Source: Desulfuromonadales bacterium
GTDB lineage: Bacteria; Desulfobacterota; Desulfuromonadia; Desulfuromonadales; SZUA-540
NCBI GenBank assembly: GCA_033549025.1
Contig: JAWSUS010000003.1
Location: 128,001-192,000, forward strand
Direction of reading: 5' to 3'
Length of the DNA: 64,000 nt
Shown: in pieces, positions 53,905 to 59,632 of the stretch
Position numbering within the stretch: position 1 is the stretch's first letter
Layout of the letters: each line of letters begins with the position of its first letter
The notes under the pieces: generated by a model
Seen by the model: the letters and a program-made list of their open reading frames with translations, nothing else
What the model was told of the DNA's origin: nothing
Database searches by the model: none
Translations under genes and position numbers: made by a program

Positions 53905-54489
53905 ATGGACACCCTGGATTGCCGCGGCAAAAAATGCCCCCAGCCGGTGATAGAAACGCGCAAGGTTCTGCTGACCAACCCCGCCGCCAGCCAGCGCGTT
54001 CTGGTCAGTGACGAGACGGCCCGTCAAAACGTCAGCCGTCTGGCCGAAAGCCTGGGGCGCTCCGTCATCGCTACCGCGACCGAAGGGGGCTTCGCCCTGG
54101 AAATCTCCGCCGGGGCAACACAGGAAGCGGCCGCCGCCGAACCGGCTGTCCACGGCAAAACCGTGGTCTTCGTCAGCTCGGACAAAATGGGCAGCGGCGA
54201 CGATGAACTCGGGCATATTTTGATGAAAAACTTCATCTTTACCCTGCTCGAGATCAATCCCGTTCCCGATGCCCTCTATTTCGTCAATGCCGGCGTCAAA
54301 CTGACCACAAAGGGTTCGGACGTTCTCGAAGCGCTGGCGCGCCTCGCCGACCAGGGAGCCGATATCGCCTCCTGCGGGCTCTGTCTCGAATTCTTCGACC
54401 TGAAAGAAAGTCTCGCCGTCGGGCGGGCGACCAACATGCTCGACACGGTGGAAACGCTTAGCAAAGCGGGGCGCATCATCCGCCCCTGA
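53905..54489 (+). CDS. yedF: Sulfurtransferase-like selenium metabolism protein (TusA/SirA + DsrE-like)
   Basis: LDCRGKKCPQPVI, MGSGDDELG, NAGVKL, SCGLCL, TNM; adjacent to tRNA-Sec. Confidence 0.88.
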   Translation: MDTLDCRGKKCPQPVIETRKVLLTNPAASQRVLVSDETARQNVSRLAESLGRSVIATATEGGFALEISAGATQEAAAAEPAVHGKTVVFVSSDKMGSGDDELGHILMKNFIFTLLEINPVPDALYFVNAGVKLTTKGSDVLEALARLADQGADIASCGLCLEFFDLKESLAVGRATNMLDTVETLSKAGRIIRP

Positions 54490-54511
54490 GAATAAAATTC
54501 CGTCACCTTAA

Positions 54512-54607
54512 GGGAGTAGGTAGTAGTCTGGTGACGCTCCCGGTCTTCAAAACCGGTGGGGGGCGTATCCCGTCCCCGGTGGGTTCGATTCCCATCTGCT
54601 CCCGCCA
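54512..54607 (+). tRNA. selC: tRNA-Sec(TCA)
   Basis: 8-bp acceptor stem GGGAGTAG/CTGCTCCC, anticodon arm CCGGT-CTTCAAA-ACCGG, long variable arm, G discriminator plus CCA; 96 nt. Confidence 0.93.
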
Positions 54608-54608
54608 A
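54545..54608 (+). repeat. attL (direct repeat copy 1, within selC)
   Basis: Identical to 58082..58145. Confidence 0.95.
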
Positions 54609-54614
54609 TTAATA

Positions 54615-54657
54615 AAAACAAGGGGTTACGGTTCTTCCGTAGCCCTTTTGTTTTTTA
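54615..54657 (+). terminator. Element-supplied terminator after selC
   Basis: AAAACAAGGGGTTACGG-ttctt-CCGTAGCCCTTTTGTTTTTT. Confidence 0.7.
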
Positions 54658-54679
54658 ATTTTCGCTAATCTTCTTGCCT

Positions 54680-54710
54680 TTTGTGACAAATTTGTGACAA
54701 TTGTGACAAA
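54680..54710 (+). repeat. Left arm-type sites, 3x TTGTGACAA
   Basis: Tandem copies at 54681, 54692 and 54701. Confidence 0.8.
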
Positions 54711-54744
54711 TTCAACAACCACCACCAAGGCACGAGGGGAGAAA

Positions 54745-55722
54745 ATGGCGACAATCGTTAAACGCGGGAAAAGCGCCTGGCTTGCTCGGATCAGGAGAAA
54801 AGGGTACCCACCCCAGACCAAGACCTTTGACAGCAAGGCAGAGGCCGCAGCATGGGCCAGGGGCGTTGAAGCGTCTATGGACCGGGGGCTTTTTGTTGAC
54901 TACTCGGAGGCAGAGGGAACAACGCTGGCCGCCGCCCTGGGCCGATACGAAAGGGAAGTTACCAGCAAGAAAAAAGGCAAGGGACAGGAAAAAGACCGCC
55001 TGAACGTGTGGCGGGGGTCTGCTCTAGCCGCCCGCTCTCTGGTCAGCATCAGGAGCGCGGATATTGCAGCATGGCGCGACGGGCGACTTGAGGCGGGGAT
55101 CTCGCCGCACACCGTCTGCAACGACCTCTCCCTCCTTTCTCACGTCTACCGGGTAGCGGCCACGGACTGGGGCATTGCGGGCCTGACGAACCCCTGTGAG
55201 CACGTGCGCCGACCAAAGAGGCCGGAGGGAAGAGACAGGAGACTGGAGGCCGGAGAAGAAGAACGGTTACTGGCCGCCCTGCCCGCCTCTGTCGGGGCGG
55301 TGGTTCGGCTGGCGCTGGAAACAGGAGCAAGGCGGGGGGAGATATTGGCGCTGAGGTGGGAAAATATCGACCTGGGGAAAAGAACGGCCCGCCTCCCAGA
55401 CACAAAAAACGGGACGGCGCGGGACCTCCCCCTTTCAACCAGGGCTGCGGAGGTGTTGCGGCAGCAACCACGGCGCCTGCATGATTCCAGAGTCTTCCAG
55501 ATCACGCCGGCGCACGTGTCAAAAAGCTTCCGGGAGGCGTGCGAGCGGGCAGGGATTGAGGATTTGAGATTTCACGACCTCCGCCATGAGGCCACCAGCC
55601 GCCTGTTTGAAAAGGGGCTGAACCCCATGCAGGTGGCAGCGATCACAGGCCACAAGACCCTGGTGATGCTGCGAAGATACACCCACCTGCGGGCGGAGGA
55701 TTTGGCCGCGCTGCTGGGATGA
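54745..55722 (+). CDS. Tyrosine recombinase/integrase (Rci/HP1-like, with N-terminal arm-binding-like domain)
   Basis: Catalytic R (TGARRGE), K (DTKNG), HxxR (FHDLRHE), H (TGHKT) and Y (RYTH); start at MATIVKRG, downstream of GAGGGG. Confidence 0.95.
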   Translation: MATIVKRGKSAWLARIRRKGYPPQTKTFDSKAEAAAWARGVEASMDRGLFVDYSEAEGTTLAAALGRYEREVTSKKKGKGQEKDRLNVWRGSALAARSLVSIRSADIAAWRDGRLEAGISPHTVCNDLSLLSHVYRVAATDWGIAGLTNPCEHVRRPKRPEGRDRRLEAGEEERLLAALPASVGAVVRLALETGARRGEILALRWENIDLGKRTARLPDTKNGTARDLPLSTRAAEVLRQQPRRLHDSRVFQITPAHVSKSFREACERAGIEDLRFHDLRHEATSRLFEKGLNPMQVAAITGHKTLVMLRRYTHLRAEDLAALLG

Positions 55723-55795
55723 CGGAAAATGGCCTAGAATCGATTTAAAGCGATTGGGTCTAGGGTGGTGGTGGTTGAGTGAATCTTTTTCAATC

Positions 55796-56299
55796 CTAGC
55801 CCCCTTTTTGTTCGTTCTGGGACGTTTTCACAAGGCGGAGGTGACGGCGTTTTTCCGTGGCGCCTTGCTGGAGGGTCCCTTTCCAGCCGATACAGGGGTT
55901 GAGGGTATAACTCTTGTGGGGTCCGTGCTGCGTCTCTCCCGGGAGGATGACGCCGGCTTCCAGCAGCTTCTTGATGCTGCGGGAGAGATTAGGCTGAGAA
56001 AGGTTCATTTCCTTAGCTAGCCCGACCTGGTTGACTAAGACCTCGTTCCCATGGCGCAGAGCCTTCAGCAACTTGAAGAAAACCTTGAAGTCAGCACCGG
56101 TCAAACTGTCACACGTCGATAAATAATCCAGTCCCATCTCTCCGTCTCCCTGCCACAAAATCAACCACTGCTCGTCGGTCTTCGTCTTCTTTTCTACCAG
56201 CATCAGATTGACCGGGGTAGTGGTTTTTTCCACCACCCCTTTCTCGATGTGGTACGTGGTTTGCTCTAAACTGTGCGCTATCTCTTTGTTTTTACTCAT
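55796..56299 (-). CDS. RepL-like winged helix-turn-helix plasmid replication protein
   Basis: LTG.D..V...L...L..N....Q..LA..M.....SRSIKKL...G.I..G......Y.LNP..GWKG pattern, recalled from small-plasmid RepL-type initiators; not verified by search. Confidence 0.7.
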   Translation of the reverse strand: MSKNKEIAHSLEQTTYHIEKGVVEKTTTPVNLMLVEKKTKTDEQWLILWQGDGEMGLDYLSTCDSLTGADFKVFFKLLKALRHGNEVLVNQVGLAKEMNLSQPNLSRSIKKLLEAGVILPGETQHGPHKSYTLNPCIGWKGTLQQGATEKRRHLRLVKTSQNEQKGG

Positions 56300-56326
56300 G
56301 CTTTTACCTCCCCACCTCCGTTGAAA

Positions 56327-56385
56327 TGATATGAACTATATCACCTGTGATATGGGTTATATCATCCGTGATATACCAAAGTCAA
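56327..56385. promoter_or_regulatory. Phased palindromic operators/iterons overlapping the rep promoter
   Basis: TATATCA-N4-TGATATR at 56337 and 56358, half site at 56327; minus-strand TTGACT-N18-TATAAC. Confidence 0.65.
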
Positions 56386-56490
56386 GTGTTTTCAACTGTT
56401 TGAGTGCGAAGCACGAGTGTATTAGAATCAAAATCTTTAACCTTTTTTTGTTTCTTTTTTTACGCACTACTTTACTCAACAATCATTTCT

Positions 56491-56691
56491 CTATTCTTCT
56501 ATCACCCTTCGAACAATCTTCCTTGCCTGCTTCAATGCACTCTCCCTAACGAATACTGACGGCTCCCTGTCTTCCAGCCGCGCGGCCTGTTCTATCTCAT
56601 CCCATTGACCCTGAGTGAACGCCACGCTCTTAACTACCCTGAAAGCATCTTCCTTGCGCGGTCTGCCTGGAATTCCTTTCCTATTGCCCAT
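56491..56691 (-). CDS. Small ribbon-helix-helix-like protein
   Basis: GRPRK, beta strand KSVAF, helices W.EIEQAA and SVFVRESAL; strong GGAGG RBS. Confidence 0.7.
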   Translation of the reverse strand: MGNRKGIPGRPRKEDAFRVVKSVAFTQGQWDEIEQAARLEDREPSVFVRESALKQARKIVRRVIEE

Positions 56692-56693
56692 TT

Positions 56694-57179
56694 TCAACCC
56701 CTCCCAAACATGTTCTTAGCACTGCCTACCAGACCTCCGGCCCTGCGGGTTTTTTCTTCCTTGACGTAGTTTTCAACCAGGTCCAAAGAGTCCTTCAGAG
56801 CCTTGGTCCTAGGGAAGGCCAGGCGGAACGCCTTCACCGCCTCGTCAACGGCTTCCTTGTTGGTGTTTTTTTCCTCCCGCATGGCGTCGGCAATAGATTT
56901 GATCTGGCTCTGTGTGTGGGCGTTGATCTTGTCTATCAGCTTTGCCATCTCCGTTATTACCCTGGTTCTCTCGGCGGTTGCCTGCTCTCTCGCCGCTTCC
57001 ATAGTCTCAGCCAGCTTGATATCAATCCTCGCTATCAGCCTTTCTTCAAGCGCCGTCGCCTCGGACTCAGCGGAGATAAGCGCCCGCGCCGCCTCTGTCG
57101 GCGTGCAGCCCCTTTCCTCCGCCAGCTTCATCAAAAATCGAAACTCCCCTTCCCCCATCCTGATGTTGATCTGTTTCAT
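56694..57179 (-). CDS. Hypothetical protein: N-terminal RHH-like domain plus coiled coil
   Basis: MKQINIRM...L..LA...G.T.TEAARALI followed by a long helical region; AGGAGGTG RBS. Confidence 0.75.
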   Translation of the reverse strand: MKQINIRMGEGEFRFLMKLAEERGCTPTEAARALISAESEATALEERLIARIDIKLAETMEAAREQATAERTRVITEMAKLIDKINAHTQSQIKSIADAMREEKNTNKEAVDEAVKAFRLAFPRTKALKDSLDLVENYVKEEKTRRAGGLVGSAKNMFGRG

Positions 57180-57188
57180 TTTTTCACC

Positions 57189-57266
57189 TCCTTTTTGATA
57201 TTATCATAATATCGAAATTGCCCCGAAAGGTAAAGGCAATTTTCATATTATCGTATTATGAAAAGG
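57189..57266. promoter_or_regulatory. Large imperfect inverted repeat containing two palindromic operators
   Basis: GATATTAT-C-ATAATATC (57197-57213), AAATTGCC/GGCAATTT, TTTCATA-N9-TATGAAA (57241-57263). Confidence 0.6.
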
Positions 57267-57273
57267 ATTTCCG

Positions 57274-57471
57274 ATGGCGTCAGACAAATGGCTGACAGTG
57301 ATATCAGAACAGGCGTGGTTGGTTGATATCGCGGGCACACGCCGCAAAATGGGCGCTGTCGCCGTTATTGCAAGGGCTGGTGATATCGCTCCCGATATCG
57401 CGTGCACACAGCATAGATGTTGGGCTGGCGGCCCGCTGGCGACAGCACACCCTACCACCAAGGGTGAGTAG
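57274..57471 (+). CDS. Possible small hypothetical protein (65 aa)
   Basis: AAAAGGA RBS upstream of the ATG, divergent from the RHH operon; no recognisable motif. Confidence 0.25.
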   Translation: MASDKWLTVISEQAWLVDIAGTRRKMGAVAVIARAGDIAPDIACTQHRCWAGGPLATAHPTTKGE

Positions 57472-57917
57472 GGTGTGCAAGCTAACCACATGTCGCCTTT
57501 CTGGGCCAACGTGCTTCTGTCTGGGCTTTTTCTCCCGGCGCGTGGCGGCGGGCGGTGTGTTCATGATCGGGCAATAGGAAAGGAAAATTTGTCGTTTCTC
57601 TGCGCCCCGTGCGCCGGGTCCGGGTTCCGCCTTGCCCCACTATCCCCTTGAGGGATAGCGGGCCTCTCGGCGCTCGCCCTCGCTCGCCCTCCCCCGGAAC
57701 TCCCCTTGCTGCCTGACTGGTGTTTTTAGACCTTGGTAGGGAAGGCTGGCCTAGCTGAAAGGTCCCTGCCAGAGAACGGCCAGCAGAGAATAATCACTGA
57801 TCCCTTCCCCACGCCTTTAAGCCTTTGACCTGACGAAGCGACGGCGAAGTCACCTCCGCGCCTCGTGGGTCAGAATGCGCCTCGCGACTGTCCGCCCGCG
57901 AGTTGACACGGAAGGGA

Positions 57918-58010
57918 TGTGACAATTTGTGACAAGGGAATTTTTGTTCTTTGTGGGCTGGTGTCACGGGATGGTTAAATCTGATGATTTGTGACAAATT
58001 TGTGACAATT
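57918..58010 (+). repeat. Right arm-type sites, two pairs of TGTGACAA
   Basis: Pairs at 57918-57935 and 57988-58010; the 23-mer TTTGTGACAAATTTGTGACAATT is identical to 54680-54702. Confidence 0.8.
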
Positions 58011-58081
58011 CTTTTCAAAAAGCCAAAAAATAACGCTCGTAAGTTCCTGTTTTTACTGTATTTTTATTGGCTAAAAACGGA

Positions 58082-58145
58082 CTTCAAAACCGGTGGGGGG
58101 CGTATCCCGTCCCCGGTGGGTTCGATTCCCATCTGCTCCCGCCAA
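58082..58145 (+). repeat. attR (3' fragment of tRNA-Sec)
   Basis: 64-bp identity to the selC 3' part, starting at the anticodon loop. Confidence 0.95.
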
Positions 58146-58151
58146 ACAGAG

Positions 58152-58190
58152 AAAGAGGGCTGTACCCCAACGGGTGCAGCCCTCTTTTTT
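58152..58190. terminator. Bidirectional terminator (likely the original selC terminator)
   Basis: AAAGAGGGCTGTACCC...GGGTGCAGCCCTCTTTTTT. Confidence 0.8.
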
Positions 58191-58237
58191 GTGTAAAGGG
58201 ACAACCGGCATTGTCTGCCTCGGCAGGTTGATGAGGC

Positions 58238-59632
58238 TCAGGAGGATGGTGATGCGACCATCGCCGTCTGATGGGTCTGCTCGGCCAGCTGCCTGGGCGA
58301 CTCCGATGCCACCACCGGCTGGGCAATGCGCTGGGAGGGAACCTCCATCAGAGCCACTACCTCATTGACCCGTTCGGTGAACTGGGCCAGCTTGCCTTTG
58401 GGCACGGCCGAGGCCATGGGGATGCTGGCCGTAAGGGGATTGACCGGACGGCCCTTGGTGTGCAGCTCGAAATGCAGGTGAGGCCCGGTGGAGCGACCGG
58501 TGTTGCCCGAAAGAGCGATGCGTTGACCCCGCTGCACTGTCTGCCCCCGCCTAACGAGAGACCGACTCAGGTGCAGGTAGCGGGTGGTGTAATGGCTGCC
58601 GTGCTGGATTTCGACGTATTTGCCGGCAAAGGGGTGATTCTGCACACGGGTGACCACACCATCGCCCGTGGCCAGCACCGGTGTGCCGGTGGGCATGGCG
58701 AAATCGACACCGTTATGGGGGGACACTCGTCCAGTGACCGGATGACGGCGGGTCCGACTGAAGGCAGAGCTGACACGATACTGGCCCTGTGTGGGATAAC
58801 GCCTGAAGGCGCGGGCCAGGCTTTCCCCCTTGTGATCGTAATAGTTGCCGTCCTCGAAGAGAAACGCGCTGTAAAGCCGCTTGCCCCGAAAGATGCGCAC
58901 CCCTTCGATACGGCTCTGACCCGTCCATTCCCCGTTGACGAACTGCTGGCTGCGCACGACCTGAAAGGTGTCGCCGGCGCGGATATCCCGGGCAAAGTTG
59001 AGTTGGTCACGAAAGAGATCGGCAATATTCACCGTTTCGTTTTCGCTCAGGCCGACATTCTTGGCCGACAGATAAAAACTGCCGTTGATGGTGCCGTCCA
59101 GAAACTCCGGCATCCATTCACCCGGCAGGACGATCTCCTCGTAATCAAAGGTCGCTCCATCCACGCGGTGATACATCACCCTCTTACCCGGGTGGATATA
59201 AAGCTCCATGTTGGCCAGCTCGCCGGATTCCTCGTCGAGGGTAAAAGTCAGCCGATTGCCGGGGCGCAGGGTATCGAGAGCCAGCAGCTGTTCATCGGCG
59301 GCCAGAATCTGATACATGGTGCTCTGACCTATCCCCAGCAGGTCGAAGATCGAACTCAGGGTGTCGCCGGGCGCGATATCACGGCTGCGGATATGATCCG
59401 GCACCGGCGGCTGTGCCGGGGCCTCGACAATCGAAGTTGGCGACAGGACAGGGGAGCTGACGTCAAACCCAGGGCCGGGAAGAGCAGAGGATGAAGAACG
59501 GGGCAGCGCCGTCAGCAGGAGACCTGGCACAGCCAGAAAAAAAAGGACGGCGGCAAGCTGCAGTCGGCGCTTGCGGCGCCTGCGGCGGCGCTGCTCTTGA
59601 GTTGTCAACCAGATAGCGTTCATAAACGACAT
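58238..59632 (-). CDS. M23-family murein DD-endopeptidase (MepM-like)
   Basis: N-terminal basic run plus TM helix, LysM-like GDTLS, HNGVD (HxxxD) and TGPHLHFE (HxH); start approximate. Confidence 0.92.
   Translation of the reverse strand: MSFMNAIWLTTQEQRRRRRRKRRLQLAAVLFFLAVPGLLLTALPRSSSSALPGPGFDVSSPVLSPTSIVEAPAQPPVPDHIRSRDIAPGDTLSSIFDLLGIGQSTMYQILAADEQLLALDTLRPGNRLTFTLDEESGELANMELYIHPGKRVMYHRVDGATFDYEEIVLPGEWMPEFLDGTINGSFYLSAKNVGLSENETVNIADLFRDQLNFARDIRAGDTFQVVRSQQFVNGEWTGQSRIEGVRIFRGKRLYSAFLFEDGNYYDHKGESLARAFRRYPTQGQYRVSSAFSRTRRHPVTGRVSPHNGVDFAMPTGTPVLATGDGVVTRVQNHPFAGKYVEIQHGSHYTTRYLHLSRSLVRRGQTVQRGQRIALSGNTGRSTGPHLHFELHTKGRPVNPLTASIPMASAVPKGKLAQFTERVNEVVALMEVPSQRIAQPVVASESPRQLAEQTHQTAMVASPSS

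Follow-up and report, generated by a model that had tools for sequence, protein, structure and literature searches.

A cargo-free 3.5-kb integrative element at a tRNA-Sec gene in Desulfuromonadales, with a RepL-like replicon and a probable MOB-F-type origin of transfer

The 64,000-nucleotide stretch analyzed here (the window; positions 128,001 to 192,000 of contig JAWSUS010000003.1, assembly GCA_033549025.1) belongs to a Desulfuromonadales bacterium of the SZUA-540 lineage (genome G000) and harbors a small integrative element in the tRNA-Sec gene selC. Two perfect 64-bp att repeats lie 3,537 bp apart, and the left repeat completes the tRNA gene, the whole of which is contained at the attL end. 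Four intact open reading frames (ORFs) of 325, 167, 66–68, and 161 amino acids (aa) make up the entire gene content without any cargo (Table 1), and an Rfam scan of 54400–58300 gave the tRNA-Sec as the sole entry above threshold. The perfect att repeats, the intact tyrosine integrase, the arm-type repeats, and the two ribbon-helix-helix (RHH)-like ORFs described in an initial annotation of this DNA, made from the letters alone, were all recovered, and its general view of an intact hybrid of integrase and small-plasmid replicon that depends on a helper is supported. The R/K/H-x-x-R/H/Y motifs are present in the integrase. The repeat TGTGACAA occurs in seven copies close to the element ends, whereas its abundance elsewhere in the genome predicts 0.03. 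The host is probably of the Desulfuromonas type, the genus to which the 95%-identical protein P0001 is assigned.

Table 1. Features of the element and its integration target (window coordinates; aa, amino acids; wHTH, winged helix-turn-helix; oriT, origin of transfer)
Feature	Position	Strand	Remarks
tRNA-Sec gene (selC)	54512..54607	+	intact; integration target
attL core	54545..54608	+	64 bp
three TGTGACAA arm-type sites, left end	54680..54712	+	putative integrase-binding sites
tyrosine integrase, 325 aa, intact	54745..55722	+	Phage_integrase 101.6 bits; phrog_1 E 2e-66
RepL-like wHTH replication initiator (ORF2), 167 aa	55796..56299	-	predicted from homologues
pair of 18-bp palindromes spaced 21 bp, at rep promoter	56337..56375	.	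probable Rep operators / origin sites
conserved region + A/T-rich tract	56385..56461	.	probable replication origin
small RHH-like protein (rhh67), 66–68 aa	56491..56697	-	weak NikA/TacA matches; candidate regulator or excision factor
left arm of 17-bp inverted pair	56673..56689	-	pair brackets orf161 + oriT
RHH + coiled-coil protein orf161, 161 aa	56694..57179	-	TrwA position, adjoins oriT
four GATATC palindromes upstream of nic	57298..57400	.	4 vs 0.05 expected; probable RHH binding sites
MOB-F-type nic site with small hairpin	57456..57476	+	predicted nick after 57476
gene-free leading region	57477..58081	+	would enter the recipient first if oriT is used; orientation predicted from nic
right arm of 17-bp inverted pair	57569..57585	+	degenerate in G002
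four TGTGACAA arm-type sites, right end	57918..58008	+	predicted arm-type
attR core	58082..58145	+	64 bp

The gene-free stretch of about 900 bp at the right end (57180–58081) contains what is, judging by its sequence, probably a MOB-F-type oriT, overlooked in the initial annotation. Its nic core shares 10/12 bases with the nic sites of F and R100 (PMC3074121) and 10/14 bases with that of R388, together with the same CACC/GGTG hairpin arms (PMC4814116). Four islands (G000, G002, G034, and G275) have the core motif 252–588 bp upstream of an RHH gene that TrwB and TrwC follow; in the element, the distance to orf161 is 297 bp and the motif is oriented as in those islands, again upstream. Two copies of the core exist in the window's own genome, one in the window and one in a TrwC island (C3:11054), and a 43-bp segment (57458–57500) is 86% identical to a second island of the congener G002, upstream of its RHH, TrwB, and TrwC genes. 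Comparison of G000 with G002, the pair from which all substitution rates given below derive, showed that non-coding positions 57272–57600 are 96.7% identical (318/329) versus 71% (170/239) at four-fold sites (Fisher p 2e-18). The lack of transfer genes claimed earlier holds for the relaxase and the type IV coupling protein (T4CP), but the statement that transfer functions are missing was wrong because a strong hairpin (57430–57510, fold z-score −6.2) surrounds the probable oriT, and an RHH gene occupies the TrwA position beside it. Likewise, the "650 bp of structured non-coding DNA" turned out to be about 900 bp that folds mildly overall (z −1.86 for 57478–58081) apart from this one hairpin; the leading region is 88–97% conserved. 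A search of oriT-region DNA against 401 genomes of the class at E ≤ 0.1 matched 80, nearly all of them noise, with three places below 1e-5. The short ORFs in 57243–57577 were dismissed as genes because they carry no coding signal, the non-synonymous substitution rate (dN) being at least equal to the synonymous rate (dS) and the three tested having no Pfam match.

The RHH structures ranked top in a fold search with orf161, all at E > 0.3, and orf161 is 27% identical over 105 aa to the RHH protein of the candidate helper described below (pairwise E 0.002). A near-length protein search returned no homologue of orf161 but itself, and its Atlas neighbors were unnamed clusters at 0.90. The dN/dS values are 0.36 for orf161 and 0.28 for rhh67.

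The complete and conserved oriT layout also bears on the idea that the element is a phage satellite, or is moved by transduction or vesicles, with the nic match being incidental or a relic. Small size, a tRNA site, and the absence of a relaxase fit satellites generally, and the integrase family is found in phages too. PICMIs in particular, as far as the accessible text of PMC10803314 describes them, are similarly minimal integrated elements, poor in genes and with extended non-coding stretches, but they are defined by alpA and primase next to int and sit at fis, whereas the present element has neither gene, is not at fis, and carries an oriT that points to conjugation. Since a short stretch of the integrase was the sole match among 50,697 phage records as well, such an origin is considered very improbable.

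Beside the integrase, ORF2 is probably, by its homologies, a RepL-like initiator of the small-plasmid type. A profile search gathered 1,787 relatives, 18/59 aligned relatives match RepL at E ≤ 0.001, and the ESM Atlas neighbors at 0.95–0.97 are RepL-bearing clusters, the top structural row meeting the Atlas's bar for the RepL name. Homologues were detected by tblastn on 242 of 72,556 plasmid records, and on some circular plasmids of 1.5–2.5 kb the homologue is the only annotated gene or one of two or three. Six of the 242 records, inspected individually, carry at most three further annotated genes each, mostly a relaxase, and in one of them another gene is also named RepL. The twin palindromes recur, with 21 bp as the best spacing in 7/7 upstream regions of homologues (spacings of 18–25 tried); the pair scored better than shuffles in just 5/7 of these regions. 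The conserved region upstream of rep is 85% identical in an island of G011, whose Rep is 37% identical. The same arrangement is described for pIGMS31, pIGRK, and pLA6_12, whose wHTH initiators lack HUH motifs and have a conserved region and two inverted repeats directly before them (accessible parts of 10.1101/2022.12.05.519187, PMC6854812, and PMC6789725), and in pIGMS31 the repeats before repM are bound by RepM (10.1101/2022.12.05.519187, PMC6854812); the likeness to RepM and to RepR of pIGRK is drawn from these descriptions. With dN/dS of 0.043 for ORF2 and 0.068 for the integrase, both proteins are, as far as substitution rates tell, under purifying selection. ORF2 is present in 3/401 genomes of the class, the third being G011.

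The RepL-like Rep of the initial annotation stood in respect of the wHTH fold, the plasmid homologues, and the twin palindromes, and a replication family was indeed found for it in the RepL-type plasmids, but the Pfam RepL model (PF05732) scored 16.2 bits and the cut-off of 20.3 was not reached. Several further results tell against a replicon: MarR/ArsR models rank first among the ORF2 matches, the AlphaFold model (pLDDT 86.5) resembles generic wHTH regulators throughout its PDB matches, and neither this model nor that of orf161 has a PDB fold match at E ≤ 0.001. No four-copy array like the four 20-bp iterons of pHW126-type origins was seen, and the depths in run X2 (att 78.8 versus 36.4 + 42.1) fit one integrated copy with no excess. 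These points would suit an iOriT that does not replicate and in which ORF2 is merely a wHTH repressor acting on the palindromes. This explanation is judged unlikely in view of the homologues that are nearly alone on tiny circular plasmids, the RepL-bearing Atlas neighbors, and the region retained upstream of rep in G011; moreover, repL by itself suffices for replication of pLA6_12, according to the accessible text of PMC6789725. Origin and oriT DNA gave nothing meaningful against plasmid records, a metagenome scan with a close Rep alignment found one locus, a cut G011-like island, and seven viral contig matches to the origin motif were set aside as chance, Rep and integrase being absent from all of them.

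A candidate helper resides in the same genome. It is a MOB-F island (G000:C3:5696-10761) whose TrwC exceeds the MobF cut-off; a helper-type TrwC island is also present in G002, and the congener G001, whose selC site is empty, has neither the element nor TrwC. Altogether, TrwC was found in 3/5 genomes tested (G000, G002, and G034, not G001 and G011). The helper had earlier been left open among a conjugative element, a phage, and a gene-transfer agent; with a TrwC island bearing a near-identical nic site in the same genome, transfer between cells would most likely proceed via the relaxase of this larger island. We therefore favor, as the probable account, a cargo-free and relaxase-less iOriT that has its own small-plasmid replicon and borrows a MOB-F relaxase. 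Like the iOriTs of a recent preprint (10.64898/2026.01.13.699239, accessible text), the element is bounded by att sites, encodes an integrase, has no relaxase or mating-pair formation (MPF) genes, and carries an oriT of the type of a relaxase-bearing element to which it is otherwise unrelated, the similarity here being that of a core motif in 4 TrwC islands, shorter than a whole oriT and judged apart from the identity thresholds of that paper. With no relaxase gene in cis, it is not an iMOB. The architecture, for which the initial annotation recognized no named class, thus has one, and a similar inventory is known from the plasmid pBAS2 (PMC5779722).

Several observations weigh against this account. 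The island of G011 has RepL and oriT, yet TrwC was not found in that genome. The nic core differs by one base from that of the co-resident island and the hairpin loops differ; since no more than two bases separate the nic site of F from that of R100 (PMC3074121), the true helper may be a relative, for instance a related island. The nic search pattern, which gave 7 places in 6/401 genomes and 0 for a reversed control, was derived from four of the sites themselves, and five of the 7 places are already known sites; the two new ones lie beside RHH-TrwB-TrwC genes in G275 and within an ordinary gene in G389, on a 33-kb contig without TrwC, where the match is probably due to chance. Although orf161 may act as an adaptor, this role is proposed mainly from its position because orf161 resembles TrwA-like proteins over the RHH part alone (hhalign probability 37%). 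No excisionase was identified in the element, and contigs of 4/4 runs, which cannot show absence, contained neither a circle junction nor an empty-site joint. Finally, VirB4, TraG P-loop, VirB10, and AAA_10 all stayed below their cut-offs in G000 and G002, and without a channel ATPase or VirB10 the candidate helper would itself be a hitcher that requires a third element.

These results suggest the following pathway for the favored iOriT. Recombination by the integrase would join attP to selC in the 3′ part of the gene, leaving the tRNA restored, in agreement with the observed att structure and empty site. On the excised circle, the RepL-like protein would bind the twin palindromes and the conserved region, repress its own promoter, and replicate the 3.5-kb circle by analogy with pIGMS31, pIGRK, and pLA6_12. 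The 161-aa RHH protein may then serve as an adaptor in the manner of TrwA by binding the GATATC repeats, and TrwC and TrwB of a MOB-F island (e.g., G000:C3:5696-10761) would recognize the site and nick at 57476/7. A third element presumably gives the mating channel, possibly of the MPF-I type, given that DotA/TraY is encoded in the helper island. The gene-free strand would enter the recipient first, followed by synthesis of the complement and reintegration of the circle at selC. A bolder version, offered only tentatively, regards the element as a four-gene, selfish, and self-amplifying satellite of a satellite, in which a swappable RepL cassette is combined with an own RHH adaptor that captures the MOB-F relaxase, and the helper in turn remodels the channel of the third element with DotA/TraY. 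If true, this would amount to a three-tier chain of conjugative parasites, with the two lower tiers together in two genomes, and the element would be among the smallest integrative hitchers on record.

The full-length element was found in 2/41 genomes searched, G000 and G002 (90% identical). G001 has a single att core in a precisely empty site with flanks 93–94% identical, and in G003, too, the sequence continues directly into the right flank. Run X1, from a landfill metagenome, yielded a 3,533-bp contig with arms 95% and 98% identical, in which 55909–56397 is exchanged for diverged DNA of equal length. Protein P0002 is identical to ORF2 over exactly the last 37 residues, and because this identity ends at the replacement boundary, 55909, the N-terminal DNA-binding part of Rep appears to have been exchanged in the X1 copy together with its palindromes. 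The three copies are alike in size (3,537 bp, 3,550 bp, and the 3,533-bp contig).

Fuller islands of integrase and RepL also exist. A 10.3-kb tRNA-Arg island in a deltaproteobacterial metagenome-assembled genome (L109:3283-13656) combines an integrase of this clade with an HTH_17 excisionase, a MobA relaxase, and RepL, and is by its gene content the relaxase-bearing counterpart of the window element. The 8.3-kb island of G011 (L018:3121-11517) sits at tRNA-Leu and shares a related integrase and Rep as well as the origin and nic motifs; a CAP12/Pycsar TIR-domain protein is part of its cargo, and no relaxase was found among its ORFs scanned. Considering these two islands, the combination of integrase and RepL recurs in the phylum, as annotated, with different mobilization modules.

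Such islands leave room for an immobile deletion remnant of a larger mobilizable island that was inherited vertically and lost in G001. The dS of int and rep (0.43–0.48) is similar to that of the flanking genes (0.40–0.61), which makes vertical descent possible and counts against recent spread, and in the parent of such a remnant TrwB and TrwC would come after the RHH gene. On the contrary, each of the four ORFs is intact and has a dN/dS of less than 0.4, the att cores are unchanged, oriT conservation is well above neutral, and the copies share one size. The Rep module has been exchanged, the integrase is just 56% identical to that of the helper, and the Rep is unrelated. No trwB, trwC, or mobA fragment was found; remnants of relaxase, T4CP, DotA, and excisionase were absent from the element in tblastn searches with six proteins (best E 0.6). 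A remnant is thus quite unlikely.

The element differs from its nearest counterparts in several respects. The preprint cited above, in its accessible text, reports 205 iOriTs with iMOB-like oriT, each needing two other elements, in six clinical species; its elements exceed 4 kb with one 2-kb exception, 12 integrative mobilizable elements (0.5%) have fewer than five genes, and no discussion of iOriT replicons was found there. In contrast, the present element has 3.5 kb, four genes, no cargo, and its own RepL replicon, keeps an RHH gene beside oriT, and belongs to another phylum. Most likely an unusually small example of this recently named class, it falls short of the 4-kb minimum that the survey gives for six other species. 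[quoted passage not shown] The present element instead resembles a MOB-F island at its oriT, which is MOB-F-like; no RDF was found, and a replicon is present. The oriT-trwABC region of R388, as outlined in PMC4853378 and PMC4814116, likewise has a nic hairpin and core adjoined by an RHH gene that is transcribed away from oriT, but rhh67 and repL come next here in place of trwB and trwC. RepL/pHW126-like plasmids, according to the descriptions at hand, are free and have their own Mob. The plasmid pBAS2 of Caldicellulosiruptor bescii shares a tyrosine recombinase, RepL, two short ORFs, and a non-coding region with the element; it is free, its recombinase is called Xer-like and assigned to multimer resolution, and the accessible text of PMC5779722 mentions no tRNA att or oriT. 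A literature search showed no paper on the present element, as far as titles or abstract openings reveal.

Hitchers of hitchers have been predicted from surveys of six clinical species, where the helper used is mostly unknown. The cargo-free 3.5-kb case described here shares one genome with its candidate helper, and does so in two species belonging to an environmental lineage of metal/sulfur reducers; a small set of parts would therefore suffice to test oriT mimicry, adaptor function, and competition. Further products are a candidate MOB-F oriT family, which may already be listed in the supplements of the preprint, and a compact kit of integrase, replicon, and oriT for Desulfuromonadales genetics.

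The integrase clade is present in 26/401 genomes of the class. Among 29 clade loci examined, a full RepL-like ORF occurs in one, and att pairs, 3.2–17.6 kb apart, were detectable in nine. Six further genomes of the order have integrases 54–58% identical to that of the element at their tRNA-Sec genes (L057, L058, L059, L062, L063, and L065), which indicates by homology that selC is a recurrent target of the clade; these six islands are larger and look defense-rich judging by their ORFs. A GTDB scan with one peptide pattern returned 27 RepL loci, among them L109 and seven with terminal repeats like small circles, and the window element is the smallest intact form of integrase plus RepL among those found.

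The candidate helper belongs to an island of about 18 kb at tRNA-Leu (G000:C44:4182-6968 and C3:1-15033; L020, L087). Its genes comprise an integrase, a BglII-type restriction-modification pair, DotA/TraY, TrwC, TrwB, an RHH protein, and a protein that has a signal peptide and whose C-terminus is of the gp53-like tail-fibre kind, and no channel ATPase is present; the counterpart in G002 has an NgoMIV-type system in place of the BglII-type one. Each MOB-F island (L087:10761-11067, L016:16445-16778, L070, and L088) has its own short repeat upstream of the common nic core. The RHH proteins of the G000 and G002 islands are about 53% identical compared with about 85% for TrwC and TrwB, which suggests that specificity modules have been swapped. 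Another tyrosine integrase gene, only distantly related (G000:C44:2255-3517, L020), lies immediately upstream of the tRNA-Leu island, beside a tRNA-Ala end and a toxin-antitoxin-like gene pair.

The 12-base core of the inverted arms in Table 1 has just two copies genome-wide, inverted on either side of oriT, and the oriT of the G011 island is bracketed by the same inverted pair (L018:9881 and 11235). The idea that the 17-bp arms enclose an invertible segment was rejected, as no inversion joint was seen in contigs of 4 runs and G002 has a degenerate right arm. Directly upstream of selC, at 53905–54489 of the window, lies yedF, an ordinary gene of selenium metabolism.

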